From a virus: a stretch of 11,802 nucleotides of DNA. The notes beneath the pieces are model-generated. The model was not told where the DNA came from. It ran no database searches and saw only the letters and a list, made by a program, of their open reading frames with translations. Positions 50 to 6,552 of this stretch are shown piece after piece. Positions within the stretch are counted from its first letter, which is position 1; each line of letters opens with the position of its first letter. The DNA is taken from the UHGV virus genome UHGV-0166849, one strand, 5' to 3'. The position numbers and the translations under genes were made by a program.

Positions 50-2995
50 TTAGTGCTTCCCTTCTATTAAGTCTAACCTAGCTTTTATCTTATCCATTTC
101 TCTGCGCTGCCATGCTGCCTCGATATAGAATAAGAGATCAGGTCTGACCCCCCATCTAGATCCTGCTGGCGTTATTTCAACGCGCTCAATGATGTCTTCT
201 ATTACCATCACTGGATTATCATCCTCATCAACAATGATGCTCCCGTCATTATCAGTCAGCGGCATTTCCCTTTGGCCAGTAATGACGTCATCATATACTG
301 CGGGATAATCGTCATAGCAAAGAAAGGCATAGCGGCATGTTGTGCTTTCTTCTTCCATGAGTCCGTGAGAAATAAGAACATCACGAAGTTGCTGCGCGAT
401 TACACCATGATGTATCCTCGCCCCTTCTTCCCCCTTTATAGCGACAGCGTTCAGCCATTTATAAGCGATATACCTGACGTCACCCCAGGCATCCAGCAAT
501 GCTTCGTCAGGAGAGACCGGCTCTGTCTTTAATGTTCCGTCACTGGTAACCACAGGATTGGAGCCAAGATAAACTATCGAGAACCTGTTTCCCGGACCAC
601 CAAGAGCATTTACATTATCAAGATAAGGTTTAACATCTCCGTTCTCAAAAAGATGTTCGAGTGCGTTATATACCGCGCGACGTGGAGTACTGCTTCTGGA
701 ACCATGCAACGTTATCATTGCACCATCTGCTGAAGACGTTGTTTCACCGCCGCTAACGATTAATCTCTGAGCGGTAACATCATCAGACGGTACTTTCTTC
801 GCAATAATGGCGTAATTACCCTCAAGTTTGACTTCCGCGCGAACTTGTCCTGATGTACCTGCATGGACAGTCAGTGACTGGACGGCAACATCATCTGTGA
901 AATCAACGGGTACAGGAACCGTCCTCACGCCTGACGTCGACATAAAAGTAGGAAGCGTTCTGTTAGGAGTGGCTCCGTAGACAAAATCCCTTGAAACAAA
1001 TTCTTCCTGTTTAATTTTCACCCTGAAACAATACAAATCAGCCGGGTGACCATCGTGAACATAAGGATATTTTCTGTTGTTATCCCCTATGCTCCATGGG
1101 TTTAGAAAATCTTCCCCACCGAAAATGTAGTACAGCCAGTTGTCTTTGATACAAACTGAACCAACACCAACCGCAGAGTTAACTATTCCGCCCTGATAAA
1201 TCTGATCAGTAACATTAACCCACTCTACATTATCCAGACTCCACTCATTGACGTTAACTCTGGTCATAAATGTTCTTGGATAATTTCCTGCATAACGGTT
1301 ATCAGGTTCTCCTCCTTCCCACTCACCAAATGCGCGCTCACTGCCAAAAATAACCAGCTCATCGCCAACTTTGGCAAAAGGAAGGTTTGAGTGATGAACA
1401 TTATTTGGGAAGCGAAGAGAATTCCATGATGTACCTAAATCAGAGCTTCTGTGCAATGAACTACCGGGTTGAGTACTTAATGTCCCCCTGGTCGTCAGAT
1501 ACAGAATGCCATCATAATATTTTACACATGGCTCAGATGCATTCGCCTCATATTCTGCAGGTATGCGTCTGCGAACAAAGCTACCAGGAGAACCGAAAGC
1601 ATCAGAGAAATAGAGTATCCCAAGCTCGCGTGGACCAATATCACCATTATGGTAGCCAACAGCAAAACTGTTATCGCTAATCGTCGCAAAACTGTGAATC
1701 TCAGTAACAGGAGTGCTTCCGTCAACAAAAGAAGGAATAGTTCCAAGACTGGTTTTTCTCCATGGTGACGAGTGAAATGATGTGCCAAAACTCCAGTATC
1801 TACCCTCGTTATTCTGATCCACATCCTGGGTATTTTGCGTCGTAACTGTAAAGGTATTTTTATCAATAACAGTAGTCACCGTCATATTCCCGGTAACATC
1901 TGTAACACCAGAGTTTGAGAAGTTGACAAAATCACCAGCAAATAATCCGTGATCAGTAATGCGAATATAAGCGACTTGCTGATTTGCTGCTTTCGTTATA
2001 CCACCATAAACGCGAAGGCTGCGACTCATTGGGCGATCCCACAACTCTGCAACCTGCAGTTTATTTCCTCTCACGGTCCGCGTCTCAATTACAGCAAAAA
2101 GGCGATTTCTGACAACCCCCATACTCATGCAGTGATAGTTAACTGTGGGATAGTTTTCATGTAAATCTGTAAGCCATTCCGGCGTTGTCCAGGTCTTCCC
2201 GTCATCTCCTGAGCGAACCCATGCAACATGGAGGTTATTTACACCATGGCGGTCTCCAGCCATAAAAGGCGCATAGATGACATTGTCATATACAAACGTT
2301 TTATCCTGCGTCCAGGCGTTGTACCACGGTGTATCTGTAATTTTAAATAACTCTCCCTGGATAAAATCTTCAGAAGCATAAAAAAGAGGCTGACCCGGTA
2401 TTCTCTCAAATAAAAAACGAGCATTTTTAAATCGACTGACATCTGGAAGAGTTGATACTTTAAAAGTAAGCCCTCGCCCATCTATCTTTTCACCACCTGT
2501 TGCAACAGAAAGTAATTCTGATAGAGCTGATGTATCATCATGAACACCATCACCAATAGCCCCCCAACCTCTTACATCATAACTGTCTCTCCATCTTGCT
2601 ATCTGAAGTTTTGGGTATTTATTCGCTCCATCTGGGTCTTCTAATTGCCGCCGTAACTGATCAGGATCATACTTCAGCACATTAGGAAAATAAAACTGCT
2701 GTGAACCATATGCATCGTACACAGCCATAGAGTGACCTTGCACAGTTACGAACTTGGCAATCTGTCCGTTATATACCGGATATCCAGCAGCGTTAATGAT
2801 GATTGGTTGCGAAACAGGAACGTGAGAGCCGTCTTCGTTCTCCACATAAGCCTGAATCTGGTTTTCAGGATTTACCGGGTCAGTGTCAATTTTACCGATA
2901 TAAATTTTGCCATTGGCTACAGCTTTAAAAGAACGCGCCATAGTGAAGAGTTGCGAAGGCATGCTGACCACAACATTTGCGGTGATATCTGTCAT
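50..2995 (-). CDS. Tailspike protein (981 aa): P22 gp9-type head-binding N-domain + sialidase-like domain with Asp-boxes + C-terminal intramolecular chaperone-like domain; probable endo-N-acetylneuraminidase (endosialidase)
   Basis: Full-length ORF in track. N-terminus [11 protein letters not shown]...[22 protein letters not shown]...ENEDGSHV...NVLKYDPDQ closely matches my memory of the P22 tailspike head-binding domain. Two Asp-box motifs are read directly: SGDDGKTW (aa 262-269, nt ~2189-2212) and SSDLGTSW (aa 517-524, nt ~1424-1447). The C-terminal ~160 aa (motifs [25 protein letters not shown]) resemble endosialidase/tail-fibre C-terminal chaperone domains. SD GGAG lies 8 nt upstream of the ATG at 2995. 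Confidence 0.85.
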
Positions 2996-3095: not shown

Positions 3096-4019
3096 TCAGT
3101 AGTTATGTACTGAAGGAGGTAATTCTTTGTTCTTAAGTCTTATCCATGCTGAAAGGTTTGTTGGTCCGTCTGGCTCATTAATATCAACATCTCGTGTATG
3201 GTTGATTAAAACATCTCTCGCCATTCCGATAACATACGAGAACTCATAACCGCAGTCATGACATCTGCCGGAATAGTTCGATTGAATTTGTTTCAGCGCC
3301 GGATACAGTTCGCGGAATAATGCCTGTGAGCGGTTGGCATAATCCCATAGCCATACAAGGCTGTTTGCTTCTTTTGCAGAAAGCTCGTTGGTTTTCTTCT
3401 CTTGTTTGCCAATGAACTCACCTTCAAGTGGAACTCGAGCTGCAAGTGATAGTGCTTCGGTAAACTGCTCCTCACTGATTTCTTTGTACGAACATCCAAA
3501 ATGGGATTTCAGTGACGACCACATGGTGATCATCGCCTTAGCCCGTTTTTCTTTTGGCAGAGACTGACCGCGACTCATGACGAGTTGTTTAATGGCTTCC
3601 TGCTGTTCAGTGGTGATTTTACCCGGCAACGCCTTTTTAGCTTTGCGTGGGTTAACTACATAGCCTTTAGTCCAGTACTCGTAGAGCACATCGTCACACT
3701 CTTCCTGATACTGGATTACCTTGTCGCGGATTTCAGGGCGGACTTTGTTTGGCTGAATGCTTGAAAGCCAAGCCGCAAACTTACGAAAGGCAAGGCATAT
3801 CATTAACTGTTTACCGCCAGCAGAAGGTATTTCGATTTCCGAAATACCTTTGACAAATCTCTGTTTTAATTTAACAAATTGAGCAGCCCAAACCATACCC
3901 ATGCCTTCTACAACGGGTTTCATAGGAACGTAAGGTTCATTGTTAATGCTGACCAAAAAGAGATTTGTTCCGTGGAATGGAACGTTGATTGTATGTTCTG
4001 CAATTGCTACACTCGTCAT
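3096..4019 (-). CDS. ant: Antirepressor Ant (307 aa), AntA/Bro-N-like N-terminal domain
   Basis: ORF in track. Sits downstream of arc and upstream of the tailspike, as in P22 immI. N-terminal region (..VPFHGTNLFLV...PMKPVVEGMGMVWAAQ..KL) looks like phage antirepressor N-domains. SD AGGA ~8 nt upstream of the ATG at 4019. Confidence 0.75.
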   Translation of the reverse strand: MTSVAIAEHTINVPFHGTNLFLVSINNEPYVPMKPVVEGMGMVWAAQFVKLKQRFVKGISEIEIPSAGGKQLMICLAFRKFAAWLSSIQPNKVRPEIRDKVIQYQEECDDVLYEYWTKGYVVNPRKAKKALPGKITTEQQEAIKQLVMSRGQSLPKEKRAKAMITMWSSLKSHFGCSYKEISEEQFTEALSLAARVPLEGEFIGKQEKKTNELSAKEANSLVWLWDYANRSQALFRELYPALKQIQSNYSGRCHDCGYEFSYVIGMARDVLINHTRDVDINEPDGPTNLSAWIRLKNKELPPSVHNY

Positions 4020-4090
4020 GTCGTTAATTCCTATGCGTGGTTTTACGATACCGAAGCCCTGACTGTTCCCGCAGTTGGGGCTTCACTGTT
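4020..4090 (+). ncRNA. Candidate sar-like antisense RNA (~70 nt) complementary to the ant RBS and start region
   Basis: Plus-strand promoter-like hexamers inside the 5' end of ant: TTGATT (3985-3990), 17-bp spacer, TACACT (4008-4013), placing a start near 4020. Downstream is an imperfect hairpin GAAGCCC...GGGCTTC (about 4051-4081) followed by TTTTT (4085-4089). This matches the known P22 arrangement of sar RNA opposite the ant RBS. Prediction from sequence only. Confidence 0.3.
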
Positions 4091-4304
4091 TTTGTAAGTC
4101 ACTGTAGCTATAAAGCCACTGACCACTCATTTTTGATTTGATTGACTCTACTGAATCACGGCAAGGAATGATTCCACCTGACATCATTCTGATCTCCGTA
4201 AATTCACCACTCCTTATCGATTCAATGCCATCAATGTTAACTAAAGATTTACCTCTACCAAGTGCATTCTCATAGCCAATCTCATCAACCTCAATAAACT
4301 TCAT
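4083..4304 (-). CDS. Hypothetical protein (73 aa) located between arc and ant
   Basis: ORF in track. Its ATG overlaps the arc stop codon (ATGA at 4301-4304, minus strand), which suggests translational coupling. SD-like GAGGGGA upstream. No recognisable motif. As I recall P22 immI, there is no gene between arc and ant. Confidence 0.45.
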   Translation of the reverse strand: MKFIEVDEIGYENALGRGKSLVNIDGIESIRSGEFTEIRMMSGGIIPCRDSVESIKSKMSGQWLYSYSDLQKQ

Positions 4305-4459
4305 ACCGTTATCCCCTCTCTCTTCAGGCTGTCCAACACTCGCTTGTAAATCTCAGAGTTAACAGATCGCCCGTTCTCTTCAGCTACCTTGCGCACCAAA
4401 TCCAATACTTCTTTAGGCCACCGCAAATTGAACTGCGGCATTTTTCTTGCACCTTGCAT
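4301..4459 (-). CDS. arc: Arc transcriptional repressor (52 aa, ribbon-helix-helix)
   Basis: Not in the ORF track (below its size cutoff). Manual translation of the minus strand gives MQGARKMPQFNLRWPKEVLDLVRKVAEENGRSVNSEIYKRVLDSLKREGITV, near-identical in its first 40 residues to P22 Arc as I recall it (MKGMSKMPQFNLRWPREVLDLVRKVAEENGRSVNSEIYQRV...). SD AGGGGA upstream of the ATG at 4459. Confidence 0.85.
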   Translation of the reverse strand: MQGARKMPQFNLRWPKEVLDLVRKVAEENGRSVNSEIYKRVLDSLKREGITV

Positions 4460-4481
4460 GTCATCCCCTTTGTGGTATTAC

Positions 4482-4508
4482 CGTACTACTATTGAAAGCG
4501 TACTACTA
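4482..4508. repeat. Two copies of a 10-bp direct repeat CGTACTACTA (4482-4491 and 4499-4508) flanking TTGAAAG; candidate operator for Arc and/or Mnt
   Basis: Read directly from the sequence. The repeats overlap the predicted P_ant -10 and transcription start region and flank the P_mnt -35. The TAGTAG core on the opposite strand is reminiscent of the P22 arc operator half-sites. Confidence 0.4.
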
Positions 4509-4520
4509 CCGTCCTAGCAT
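4492..4520 (+). promoter_or_regulatory. Candidate P_mnt promoter, overlapping back-to-back with P_ant
   Basis: On the plus strand: -35 TTGAAA (4492-4497), 17-bp spacer, -10 TAGCAT (4515-4520). Followed by SD AAGGAG (4533-4538) and the GTG start of mnt at 4545. Confidence 0.4.
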
Positions 4521-4525
4521 GTCAA
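4497..4525 (-). promoter_or_regulatory. Candidate P_ant promoter (drives arc, orf73, ant)
   Basis: On the minus strand: perfect -35 TTGACA (4525-4520), 17-bp spacer, weak -10 TACGCT (4502-4497). Lies in the divergent arc/mnt intergenic region, as in P22. Confidence 0.45.
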
Positions 4526-4544
4526 CAAATAAAAGGAGAATGAC

Positions 4545-4787
4545 GTGGCTAGAAATGATCCGCAATTCAACGTAAGAATGCCAGATGAGATAAAACAGCA
4601 ACTTACGCATATTGCTGCAACAAATCGTCGCTCTATCAATGCTGAAATTATTGCCGCTATCCAATTGTGGATAAAGATACATAAAGAGCAGGTAATACCT
4701 TCAAGTAGTCAGCAACTGACCAAGTCAGAGAAAGAGGCTCTTGATGTGACTATTGATGTTCTACAACGTGTAAGGGATGGGAAATGA
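4545..4787 (+). CDS. mnt: Mnt repressor (80 aa, ribbon-helix-helix, Arc/Mnt family)
   Basis: ORF in track with GTG start. N-terminus MARNDPQFNVRMP...RRSINAEI matches P22 Mnt as I recall it (MARDDPHFNFRMP...GRSMNSEL). Divergent from arc, with a strong SD AAGGAG 6 nt upstream. Confidence 0.85.
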   Translation: MARNDPQFNVRMPDEIKQQLTHIAATNRRSINAEIIAAIQLWIKIHKEQVIPSSSQQLTKSEKEALDVTIDVLQRVRDGK

Positions 4788-5056
4788 AACCAACGAACAA
4801 AGAAATTTTCGAGCAAATAAAAGTACTTCCTTTCACTATTGAGCTTGCAAAGAGATATGAAGCTTATTATCCGTTTACCGAAGAGTCGATACGGATAGAG
4901 ACATATGATGAGTTTGGTCAGTGCTCTATCTGGCTTGGCTTTGAAGACCAATTTGCTATACGTGATGCTTTTGGAAATTGGAGAATGGCTACAGCTGAAG
5001 AATGTATTGATCTCAGAGGTGGCAACCTTCCAGGTTCAATGACATTAGTTAATTAA
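4784..5056 (+). CDS. Hypothetical acidic protein (90 aa), translationally coupled to mnt
   Basis: ORF in track. Its ATG overlaps the mnt stop (ATGA at 4784-4787). Net acidic (15 D+E versus 9 K+R). No recognisable motif. Confidence 0.55.
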   Translation: MKPTNKEIFEQIKVLPFTIELAKRYEAYYPFTEESIRIETYDEFGQCSIWLGFEDQFAIRDAFGNWRMATAEECIDLRGGNLPGSMTLVN

Positions 5057-5080
5057 CGGCGTACATGGCAGGTATGTAAA

Positions 5081-5266
5081 ATGAATAATAAACCAATGTC
5101 TAACGAAGAGTTGCAGCGCGAGTTAAAGAAACTTCATAAACTGGTATCACTTATCTACTCCAAGTTGCCACCAGATGCTCGACAAGCTGTTTTTGATGAA
5201 CTAACAAGAAGCGGAGATAGGGATGATCTGGATACTGCTTCTCGTATCAATAGCTACCGTTTTTAA
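5081..5266 (+). CDS. Hypothetical protein (61 aa)
   Basis: ORF in track. Weak SD (AGGT) 7 nt upstream. Its last 20 nt overlap a convergent minus-strand small ORF. Coding status uncertain. Confidence 0.35.
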   Translation: MNNKPMSNEELQRELKKLHKLVSLIYSKLPPDARQAVFDELTRSGDRDDLDTASRINSYRF

Positions 5267-5426
5267 TAGCCTCCAGAGTCGAATCGTAACGACTGCGCAT
5301 TGATTTTGCTGATTTCTCAAGCTCTTCTGCTTGATGCTTCAGTGATTCAAGATGAAGCTCTCCAAGATGGCACTTCATCACTTTGATGGTGCGTTCAAGG
5401 TTTTCCACACGTTCTTCTATGGTCAT
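5247..5426 (-). CDS. Hypothetical protein (59 aa), helical and charged; not in the ORF track
   Basis: Manual translation gives MTIEERVENLERTIKVMKCHLGELHLESLKHQAEELEKSAKSMRSRYDSTLEAIKNGSY. Strong SD AAGGA 6 nt upstream of the ATG at 5426. No obvious promoter between it and the upstream terminator, so expression is uncertain. Confidence 0.35.
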   Translation of the reverse strand: MTIEERVENLERTIKVMKCHLGELHLESLKHQAEELEKSAKSMRSRYDSTLEAIKNGSY

Positions 5427-5458
5427 GGTATTTCCTTAATCTTTAAAGTAGAGAAGAT

Positions 5459-5490
5459 AAAAAAACCCACCTGACGGTGGGTTAATTTTT
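5459..5490. terminator. Bidirectional rho-independent terminator
   Basis: A-run (5459-5465), perfect 8-bp stem AACCCACC/GGTGGGTT with loop TGAC (5464-5483), then AATTTTT (5484-5490). The A-run on one side and T-run on the other allow termination in both directions. Confidence 0.65.
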
Positions 5491-5508
5491 GCATTTACCT
5501 GGGCCATA

Positions 5509-5537
5509 TTGACTACTCATAAAATGAGATCAATATT
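5509..5537 (+). promoter_or_regulatory. Candidate sigma70 promoter for the small gene at 5574, with an inverted repeat in the spacer
   Basis: -35 TTGACT (5509-5514), 17-bp spacer, -10 AATATT (5532-5537). The spacer contains the inverted repeat CTCAT-AAAA-TGAG (5517-5529), a possible operator. Confidence 0.35.
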
Positions 5538-5573
5538 TAATCGCCCAATAACGGGTGTATGTTGAGGTATATC

Positions 5574-5753
5574 ATGGCGAAAAAACCAGGTGAAAACACA
5601 GGAAAAAACGGCGGAATATACCAAGAAGTTGGCCCACGCGGCGGTAAGAAAGACAATTTTGCAACCGTCAAGGACAACGAAAGGCTTCCACCAACAACAA
5701 AGCCAGGTCATGGCTGGGTATTGGATAAGCGAACTCCAGACAGCAAAAAGTAA
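5574..5753 (+). CDS. Hypothetical small basic protein (59 aa; alternative start at 5559 gives 64 aa)
   Basis: ORF in track. SD GAGG (5564-5567) 6 nt upstream of the ATG at 5574. Gly/Lys/Pro-rich sequence MAKKPGENTGKNGGIYQEVGPRGGKK...LPPTTKPGHGWVLD. I have a vague sense this resembles a conserved small-protein family but cannot name it. Confidence 0.55.
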   Translation: MAKKPGENTGKNGGIYQEVGPRGGKKDNFATVKDNERLPPTTKPGHGWVLDKRTPDSKK

Positions 5754-5766
5754 TACTCAAGCCGGG

Positions 5767-6132
5767 TCACTCCGGCTTTTTGATATGTCGCTCGCAGAAC
5801 TCAACAAGCCTGCTCATTAAGTAGCAGTAAGTCTCATTGGCTCTTCCTGGTTCAACATCAACACCGACCCTTGAGCAGATATCGAATGCCATGTGAGCGC
5901 ACTCATGGGCAATAGTAGATAGTTTGCCATTGAACACGCCTATCACATGCAAAACACCATTCTCGCTGCTCATTGTATGAGACGCTCCGTTGGCGTCCGA
6001 GTCATGCACGTCAACGCCAAGTTTTTGATGCAGGCGTTGCCATTCTGGAAAGTCTCTACAAAACACAATTGTACCGCTCTCAAAGAGCGGAACGAGCATC
6101 TTTGGTACGTTTCCAATGTTAACTTTTTTCAT
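5767..6132 (-). CDS. Hypothetical HExxH-motif protein (121 aa); candidate mini zinc-metallopeptidase
   Basis: ORF in track starts at a TTG at 6171. I prefer the first ATG at 6132, which has SD AGGA ~5 nt upstream. Contains HECAH (aa 76-80) with Glu residues 14 and 20 aa downstream, consistent with a zincin HExxH...E arrangement. The overlapping plus-strand translation looks non-protein-like. Confidence 0.55.
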   Translation of the reverse strand: MKKVNIGNVPKMLVPLFESGTIVFCRDFPEWQRLHQKLGVDVHDSDANGASHTMSSENGVLHVIGVFNGKLSTIAHECAHMAFDICSRVGVDVEPGRANETYCYLMSRLVEFCERHIKKPE

Positions 6133-6162
6133 GGTATCCTGCTCAAAACTAAGGAGCTTGGT

Positions 6163-6552
6163 GTGAAGCAATTTCTTGCTGCTATGTTCTTATTCATATC
6201 TTTTGGGGCTACAGCAGAGTGCTGGGTCGTTGGAGATATGCGCGGAATAAGCTATTCAGAACGAAATAATTTCCATCCGGAAGAAGATGGTTTTAGTGGA
6301 ACATTCATCATTAAGACAAGCGGTGAAGATGCCAGCATCACATATTCTGGGACAGATGCGGGCGGCATGGCTTACAAAGCATTGTCTAAAAACTCCATCA
6401 TAGGAATCGGCGCGAATGGCGAAACTCAACGCGTTATCGACTCATGGGTAATACATCCTACTGGAACAGTTTTAATGTCAAAAACCATTTCTGGTTATGG
6501 GAATATGGATTCAACCAAAGCTTTTGTTGGAAAAGTAAAAAGAAAATGTTAA
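6163..6552 (+). CDS. Hypothetical secreted/periplasmic protein (129-aa precursor) with Sec signal peptide
   Basis: Start re-called to the GTG at 6163, with SD AAGGAG (6151-6156) 6 nt upstream. N-terminus MKQFLAAMFLFISFGATA|ECW has an n-h-c signal-peptide layout with an A-x-A cleavage site. The predicted mature protein has one Cys at residue 2 and one as the C-terminal residue. No lipobox. Opposite orientation to the late operon, at the position P22 uses for sieA. Confidence 0.6.
   Translation: MKQFLAAMFLFISFGATAECWVVGDMRGISYSERNNFHPEEDGFSGTFIIKTSGEDASITYSGTDAGGMAYKALSKNSIIGIGANGETQRVIDSWVIHPTGTVLMSKTISGYGNMDSTKAFVGKVKRKC

Follow-up and report, generated by a model that had tools for sequence, protein, structure and literature searches.

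ORF90, a conserved acidic protein encoded beside prophage antirepressor genes and a possible accessory of the immI-type control module

The 11,802-nucleotide DNA of virus genome UHGV-0166849 (referred to as the window, meaning the whole stretch that was analyzed) contains a 90-codon reading frame, ORF90, placed directly after a mnt-type repressor gene. This position raises the question of whether ORF90 is a cargo gene expressed in the lysogen together with the repressor, as an earlier note on this DNA had suggested in proposing a host-protection or anti-defense factor, or is instead an accessory part of the antirepressor switch beside which it lies.

The window covers the late/immI end of a P22-like podovirus prophage. 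The presence of arc, sar and ant opposite mnt and ORF90, with the tailspike gene adjoining, identifies a P22-type immI region with the following features.

50-2995, minus strand: tailspike gene
3096-4019, minus strand: ant antirepressor gene with P22_AR_N and P22_AR_C domains (Pfam)
4021-4087, plus strand: sar antisense RNA (Rfam RF00262, 76.6 bits, E 7e-14)
4083-4304, minus strand: 73-codon gene between arc and ant, matching phrog_11805 over its full length (E 4e-53)
4301-4459, minus strand: arc repressor gene (Pfam Arc, E 2e-26; 87% nucleotide identity to P22 arc), first in the divergent ant operon
4492-4520, plus strand: promoter-like site TTGAAA-17-TAGCAT from a consensus scan, 5' of mnt and presumed to be Pmnt
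4545-4787, plus strand: mnt-type ribbon-helix-helix (RHH) repressor gene, GTG start, 80 aa (Pfam Arc, E 3e-13)
4772-4783, plus strand: Shine-Dalgarno-like purine-rich stretch AAGGGATGGGAA, recognized by sequence inspection within the mnt 3' end and abutting the ORF90 ATG
4784-5056, plus strand: ORF90, 90 codons with an ATG start, encoding an acidic, cytoplasmic 90-aa product
5081-5266, plus strand: orf61, the next small gene after ORF90 (phrog_16466, E 3e-11)
5247-5426, minus strand: 59-codon coiled-coil-like gene, convergent with orf61 with a 20-nt overlap
5464-5483, no strand assigned: GC-rich hairpin with T runs on either side, the first terminator-like site 3' of ORF90, located where P22 homology resumes
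from 6577 onward, minus strand: ejection-protein genes

The 3' end of the 73-codon gene shares a few bases with the end of the sar RNA on the opposite strand, and P22 has nothing between arc and ant where this gene is found. The 59-codon gene has a good ribosome-binding site (AAGGA) and is kept in all Salmonella relatives shown, with weak PHROG matches only. Some Salmonella relatives (L045) also contain orf61, for which a scan of viral contigs run as a control found no relatives.

The mnt gene has the sequence AAGGAG 8 nt 5' of its GTG start, and the N terminus of the encoded Mnt (MARNDPQFNVRMP) matches that of P22 Mnt (MARDDPHFNFRMP). The ORF90 ATG occupies positions 4784-4786 and the mnt TGA positions 4785-4787, and these coordinates confirm the earlier observation that ORF90 starts on the mnt stop through an ATGA overlap. 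No terminator was found in the window between mnt and ORF90 or between ORF90 and orf61, and the promoter hexamers assigned to Pmnt occur in the same place in a Yersinia locus (L001). Tight spacing of mnt and ORF90, with either an overlap or a gap of ≤21 nt, recurs in 6 lineages besides the window. Judging from this layout, ORF90 is here probably made from the mnt message with its translation coupled to that of Mnt. Production together with Mnt in the lysogen, as the earlier note had assumed, is plausible for the window given the promoter-like site, the ATGA overlap and the lack of an intervening terminator; it does not extend to the whole family.

The same strand of P22 carries, in order, mnt, orf59a, a terminator, the sieA promoter and sieA. 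Positions 4313-4447 of the window match P22 arc at 87%, positions 4448-5459 have no P22 match, and positions 5460-6165, which correspond to P22 from the final 15 nt of its mnt to the start of sieA, show 97.7% identity. The loss of the P22 match over 4448-5459 and its resumption at 5460 mean that the block composed of the mnt allele, ORF90, orf61 and orf59(-) is a mosaic replacement of P22 mnt. The window mnt is a non-P22 allele, and the P22 mnt operon runs into orf59a, in agreement with the earlier remark that ORF90 has no P22 counterpart. Further downstream, the 97.7% identical stretch spans orf59a, the mnt terminator and the sieA promoter, and homology ends exactly at the sieA start codon, where an in-frame replacement gene (6163-6552, plus strand, GTG at 6163) encodes a secreted-looking protein of ∼129 aa matching phrog_2651. 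As read from the sequence, the sieA position is a clean cargo swap behind a kept promoter. Within the P22-homologous stretch, the late-gene strand carries a 134-codon ORF (5767-6171, minus strand) matching phrog_1365 (E 1e-39) where the P22 record annotates no CDS, and this ORF may be hkcC, a gene named for P22 in PMC2629481. The region between gene 16 and gene 9 of P22-like phages has been described as a highly variable "ant moron" in which many genes have no assigned function (PMC2629481, PMC8022706).

A search of 5.8 billion proteins returned 26 clusters of ORF90 homologues, rising to 46 with a profile that included distant members, and an exhaustive HMM search yielded 10 matches among 1.84 billion representatives. 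The cluster members are almost all 86-97 aa in length, and none carries an informative name. Four of the HMM matches (P0027, P0032, P0034 and P0035) were rejected as homologues after a Pfam scan and inspection, being long repetitive proteins in which only short repeated stretches align. The family alignment has 16 invariant columns concentrated in QCSVWLGFEDQFAIRDAFGNWR, a predicted hairpin. A disulfide or metal site at C47/C74 was also considered and discarded, these residues not being kept in distant members. Pairwise pS values are 0.65-0.96 (0.38 for the closest pair) compared with pN values of 0.05-0.28, and dN/dS is 0.06-0.15 where measurable. Near-saturated synonymous differences set against few non-synonymous ones mean that the family is old and under strong purifying selection, and on this pattern of substitution ORF90 is a real gene and not a chance reading frame. 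Identity among the enterobacterial ORF90 proteins is 50-79%, compared with 16-47% for most of the neighboring Ant C-terminal domains and ∼44-60% for Mnt. Similarity matrices of ORF90 and the Ant C-terminal domain compared by the mirror-tree approach are correlated (rho 0.40, Mantel p ∼0.001), a correlation of a kind that linkage alone can yield.

The contig collection has 88 blocks indexed for a protein identical or nearly identical to ORF90 (P0001). All 24 contigs read come from Salmonella assemblies or sequencing runs, and the four that are shown all have the same mnt-ORF90 block with varying cargo beyond it; the products encoded just past ORF90 in Salmonella relatives include SocA_Panacea, DUF1902 and SieA. 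The SocA_Panacea-domain gene is accompanied by a 147-aa gene between the ORF90 block and gene 16 (L044, L046 and L047, ∼4203-5070, minus strand), and this cassette may be a toxin-antitoxin or defense pair in the sieA slot. Presence of the gene after mnt in related P22-like phages, a point raised by the earlier note, holds for the Salmonella contigs shown and fails for E. coli prophages with nearly the same Mnt.

The product itself resembles no characterized protein in the searches made. ORF90 has no match in Pfam, PHROGs or NCBIfam, no PADLOC defense family at E ≤ 0.1, no match in a profile search of PDB sequences at E ≤ 10, and no tblastn match in 50,697 phage records. The AlphaFold2 model calculated with the family alignment as input (pLDDT 92.1, pTM 0.81) predicts two helices followed by an antiparallel sheet of four strands and a C-terminal helix. 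Foldseek with this model returned nothing below E 0.69 from the PDB and nothing below E 0.02 from viral models, and no significant fold similarity was found to T6SS/CDI immunity-like, cystatin or NTF2-like small α+β proteins. Structure prediction and homology search, the check that the earlier note had suggested, thus gave a confident model and matched no known phage gene family. The possibility that ORF90 is a stand-alone copy of a domain of Ant or another neighbor, acting as a decoy, was rejected; the family HMM run on the 2,183 ORFs of the fetched loci matched only ORF90 homologues.

The acidity reported earlier is confirmed, with a pI of 4.54 and a net charge of -6 over 90 residues, and it is shared by all 37 family members examined (pI 4.05-5.17, net charge -3 to -11). 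This acidity in every member, together with the lack of a toxin-family or fold match, makes the earlier argument against a RelE/ParE-type toxin a reasonable one. The companion suggestion of a DNA mimic fares less well; a net charge of -6 per 90 residues is modest, and ORF90 has neither a sequence or fold match to anti-restriction mimics of the Ocr and ArdA type nor their very high patterned charge. Inspection by eye of the aligned members revealed no hydrophobic N terminus or membrane-length stretch, a difference from SieA, which is an envelope protein with a membrane span or signal peptide. The acidic composition and the lack of a visible hydrophobic leader or membrane stretch make an envelope role and nucleic acid binding unlikely, which leaves protein binding as the most plausible activity.

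The genomic setting of the family was examined in 21 distinct loci with neighbors annotated by Pfam and local searches; a scan of a genome collection contributed a single locus to this set (L005, Shewanella). An Ant-family gene lies within 1.7 kb of the ORF90 homologue in all 21. The Ant proteins have six types of N-terminal domain (P22_AR_N, ORF6N, Bro-N, KilA-N, pRha and AntA), the prophages are podo-, sipho- and myovirus-like, and the hosts are Salmonella, Yersinia, Xenorhabdus, Proteus, Enterobacter, Pectobacterium, Acinetobacter and Shewanella. The Acinetobacter homologues, at 33-39% identity, are still placed beside ant. Seven gene arrangements occur, and linkage to ant is kept in each.

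Type A (8 loci): mnt followed by ORF90; the window, L001, L004/L010, L006, L015, L017, L031 and L042/43
Type B (5 loci): Pant-arc-ant1-ant2-ORF90-terminator, with ORF90 3-25 nt past ant2; L008, L009, L014, L032-34 and L035
Type C (3 loci): lone ORF90 divergent from an sRNA-Xcc1-type RNA and a KilA-N or Bro-N ant; L011, L013 and L016
Type D (1 locus): ORF90 immediately 5' of mnt; L012
Type E: ORF90 convergent with a regulator facing ant; L026 (HTH-looking) and L030 (RHH)
Type F: RHH and ORF90 domains in one protein of 152 aa, P0028, at the Mnt position opposite ant; L018-20
Type G: Xcc1 RNA and a pRha-type ant 1.7 kb away; L005 (Shewanella)

At the type A junction, the window, L001 (a Yersinia siphovirus-like prophage) and L015 have an ATGA overlap, and in L006 the two genes overlap by 17 nt. 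They are separated by 1-21 nt in L004/L010 (Xenorhabdus), in L017 and in L031 (Proteus). A small zinc-finger-like gene separates mnt and ORF90 in L042/43. This 67-aa gene (weak zf_Tbcl_Rhp7 match) follows mnt in myovirus-like prophages (L043 3222-3425, plus strand; L032 1642-1845, minus strand), and in L032 it takes the place after mnt whereas ORF90 is in the ant operon. In the type B locus L033 a strong intrinsic terminator (4292-4311) follows ORF90. The three type C loci have no RHH gene within 2.5 kb, and the ant regulator of L026 is HTH-like by sequence with no match to Arc. The P0028 fusion was recovered from three independent metagenome samples, and its sister protein P0036, encoded at the syntenic site, shares the RHH domain and ends in an unrelated C-terminal tail. 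In most loci an iterative search identified an Ant with a P22_AR_C-like domain; this domain was considered as a universal docking site for ORF90 and rejected, being missing from the Ants of L012 and L018.

Two further observations concern RNA elements of these modules. Immediately 5' of antirepressor genes of the KilA-N, Bro-N or pRha type, and in the same orientation, lies Rfam sRNA-Xcc1 (RF02221, 67-79 bits), at the following positions.

L011 5664-5749, L012 5660-5745, L013 5666-5750 and L016 5788-5870, minus strand: sRNA-Xcc1 (RF02221)
L005 7871-7957, plus strand: sRNA-Xcc1 (RF02221)

The ant modules that bear this RNA appear from their layout to be under structured-RNA control instead of that of Mnt and Arc, an arrangement that presumably resembles that of the phage P1 c4 RNA. 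Acinetobacter-type phages have, between ant and the Mnt-like gene (L018 4850-5000 and L021 4849-5000), a conserved GC-rich hairpin with a T run after it, AAAACCCCTC...GAGGGGTTTTGTTTTT; this element may be a terminator or else a small antisense RNA similar to sar.

The type B operon is the one that Mnt represses, so that what unites the family is closeness to the ant switch and not expression in the lysogen. The proposal of a lysogen-expressed protection factor is consistent with the mnt-coupled loci, and is at odds with the five loci in which ORF90 ends the ant operon and with those in which it stands alone, precedes mnt or is fused.

A comparison is provided by the same slot in E. coli, where 34 genomes contain the window mnt allele at 88-92% nucleotide identity and the homology ends at the mnt stop codon. 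Unrelated genes follow mnt in these prophages, including those for membrane proteins and a lipoprotein, and some are ATGA-coupled. The absence of ORF90 from prophages with a near-identical Mnt means that it is dispensable for Mnt and Ant. One of the genes ATGA-coupled to the same mnt allele (L024 3285-3695) was used as a control. It belongs to a family of ∼136 aa also found at L012 6516-6932 and L036-L041, and it is often followed by a gene for a coiled-coil protein with a C-terminal membrane anchor (L024 3688-4041, L012 6925-7500). Close homologues of the control gene lie after mnt, and distant ones (33-36% identity) lie after a CI-type HTH/S24 repressor with no ant nearby. The control gene is, on this placement, a candidate lysogeny-expressed moron, positioned as a true lysogeny-linked moron would be. 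Its placement is consistently that of a prophage-expressed gene and that of ORF90 is not, with 8 loci after mnt and 5 ending the ant operon.

Two main readings have to be weighed against each other. The preferred one, at a probability of roughly 0.4, is that ORF90, a soluble, acidic α/β protein, acts as a protein-binding accessory of the antirepressor-control (immI-type) module and is not free-standing lysogenic cargo. The more mundane reading, in which ORF90 is an independent moron hitch-hiking in ant modules, is nearly as likely; the protein could then, for example, act in phage exclusion or anti-defense or inhibit a conserved host protein, with ant modules serving as mobile, recombination-prone cargo sites. 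The variability of the slot speaks for cargo, as unrelated and in part ATGA-coupled genes follow the same mnt allele in E. coli, orf59a and then sieA occupy it in P22, the genes beyond ORF90 vary among Salmonella relatives (SocA_Panacea, DUF1902, SieA), and the region has been termed a variable "ant moron" (PMC2629481). The far higher conservation of ORF90 than of Ant or Mnt is not what tight co-evolution with Ant predicts and points to a conserved target, possibly a host protein, which again fits cargo. So do the rarity and dispensability of the family, with its 46 clusters being few relative to ant modules and E. coli prophages lacking it, and the module reading is further weakened by the Ants of L012 and L018 without P22_AR_C and by a fusion confined to one lineage. 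Cargo does not readily account for the linkage to ant within 1.7 kb at 21 of 21 loci across seven arrangements and six Ant N-domain types, nor for the natural fusion P0028, in which ORF90 is joined to the RHH repressor of the module at the Mnt position. Five lineages place ORF90 in the ant operon; repression of this operon in the lysogen makes it no place for a lysogenic-conversion gene. The control gene from the same slot loses its linkage to ant at a divergence similar to that at which ORF90 homologues keep it, and ORF90 lacks a PADLOC match.

A partnership with the RHH repressor (Mnt or Arc) instead of Ant, either as a co-repressor or oligomerization subunit or as an acidic operator mimic relieving repression, is rather unlikely. 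It would explain why the fusion exchanges the C-terminal tail of a Mnt-like repressor for ORF90, and is consistent with the tight mnt coupling in seven lineages (an eighth has a small intervening gene), the reversed adjacency in L012, the ORF90 convergent with an RHH gene in L030 and the presence of Arc in type B operons; CarS, a small antirepressor that mimics operator DNA, is a precedent (PMC2926617). Types C and G and locus L026 are left unexplained by it, as no RHH gene lies within 2.5 kb at L011, L013 and L016 and the HTH-looking regulator of L026 has no Arc match, and in E. coli the same allele of Mnt does without ORF90. Very improbable is a type II toxin-antitoxin pair of an RHH antitoxin followed by its toxin. 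An RHH gene overlapping a small downstream gene is the layout of such operons, and Mnt weakly matches FitA-like, RelB-like and HicB-type RHH models. However, ORF90 has no toxin family or fold match and is acidic in every member, and the pairing is not obligate, with homologues found without an RHH gene, behind ant, before mnt or fused to an RHH domain. Mnt moreover faces a complete arc-sar-ant unit and hence has a known role already.

Under the preferred reading as a module accessory, ORF90 would bind a protein of the module rather than nucleic acid, and we infer the partner and the direction of the effect. In the version that is preferred, ORF90 would bind Ant and buffer it, adding a post-translational brake to those that Mnt and Arc exert on transcription and to the antisense brake of sar. 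Fusion to ORF90 would make the RHH repressor responsive to Ant, by analogy with toxin-antitoxin autoregulation. A second version has ORF90 binding the RHH repressor itself. Within the module reading, Ant is preferred to the RHH repressor as the partner, since a role directed at Ant fits every context: with Mnt it would be a second brake, at the end of the ant operon it would mirror Arc at the start, and it would be compatible both with an ORF90 facing ant without an RHH gene and with the repressor fusion. Positions coupled to mnt or at the end of the ant operon would fit as natural sites for a negative regulator of Ant. The more specific proposal of an "anti-antirepressor" family, which would neutralize Ant by binding it or couple Ant levels to the RHH repressor, is doubtful as it stands.

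Two repressors, an antirepressor and an antisense RNA make P22 immI a classic example of layered control, and ORF90 is a further strongly constrained protein in many relatives of this region. If ORF90 modulates Ant or the RHH repressor, it would provide a post-translational layer in prophage induction and in cross-talk between prophages in Salmonella and other pathogens, and a true anti-antirepressor would turn the immI-type module into a lysis-lysogeny switch that operates in the manner of a toxin-antitoxin circuit. If it is host-directed cargo instead, its strong conservation points to a conserved bacterial target. Whichever reading applies, the family is directly testable in P22-like Salmonella prophages.

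Several known systems share parts of this organization. Type II toxin-antitoxin operons with an RHH antitoxin, known for conditional cooperativity, likewise have an RHH gene overlapping a small partner gene, and in them the binder of a harmful protein is coupled to its transcriptional repressor; ORF90 differs in being acidic, in matching no toxin family and in not always lying beside an RHH gene. RHH regulators with a C-terminal sensor or oligomerization domain, such as NikR and P22 Mnt, are comparable with P0028, which likewise joins an RHH domain to a folded domain. The C-terminal tail of P22 Mnt is a tetramerization tail, and the C-terminal domain of NikR has the order β-α-β-β-α-β. The predicted order of secondary structural elements in ORF90 differs from that of NikR, and the ORF90 model has no significant fold match. 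The small antirepressor CarS acts by operator-DNA mimicry, through which it sequesters its repressor (PMC2926617). ORF90 is also small, acidic and β-rich, a likeness that is an analogy only, as it has no sequence or fold similarity to CarS.

The cargo genes of the "ant moron" (sieA, orf59a, hkcB/C) occupy the same variable region as ORF90. In contrast with them, ORF90 extends to sipho- and myovirus-like prophages and to Acinetobacter. It lies beside ant throughout, in both mnt and ant operons, and is once fused to the repressor, whereas the control cargo gene of the same slot behaves otherwise. The closest comparison is P22 immI, with which the window shares an RHH Mnt gene divergent from arc-ant, a sar RNA and an adjoining tailspike gene; P22 differs in lacking ORF90, in its mnt allele and in lacking the extra gene of 73 codons between arc and ant. 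A fourth protein component of immI is not described in the P22-like genome papers PMC2629481 and PMC8022706, and neither the linkage of ORF90 to ant nor the RHH-ORF90 fusion was found in the literature searched on this region. The immI module and the variability of the region are known; the ORF90 family is unannotated, without recognizable relatives in sequence or fold, and would be an extra component of immI-type modules.
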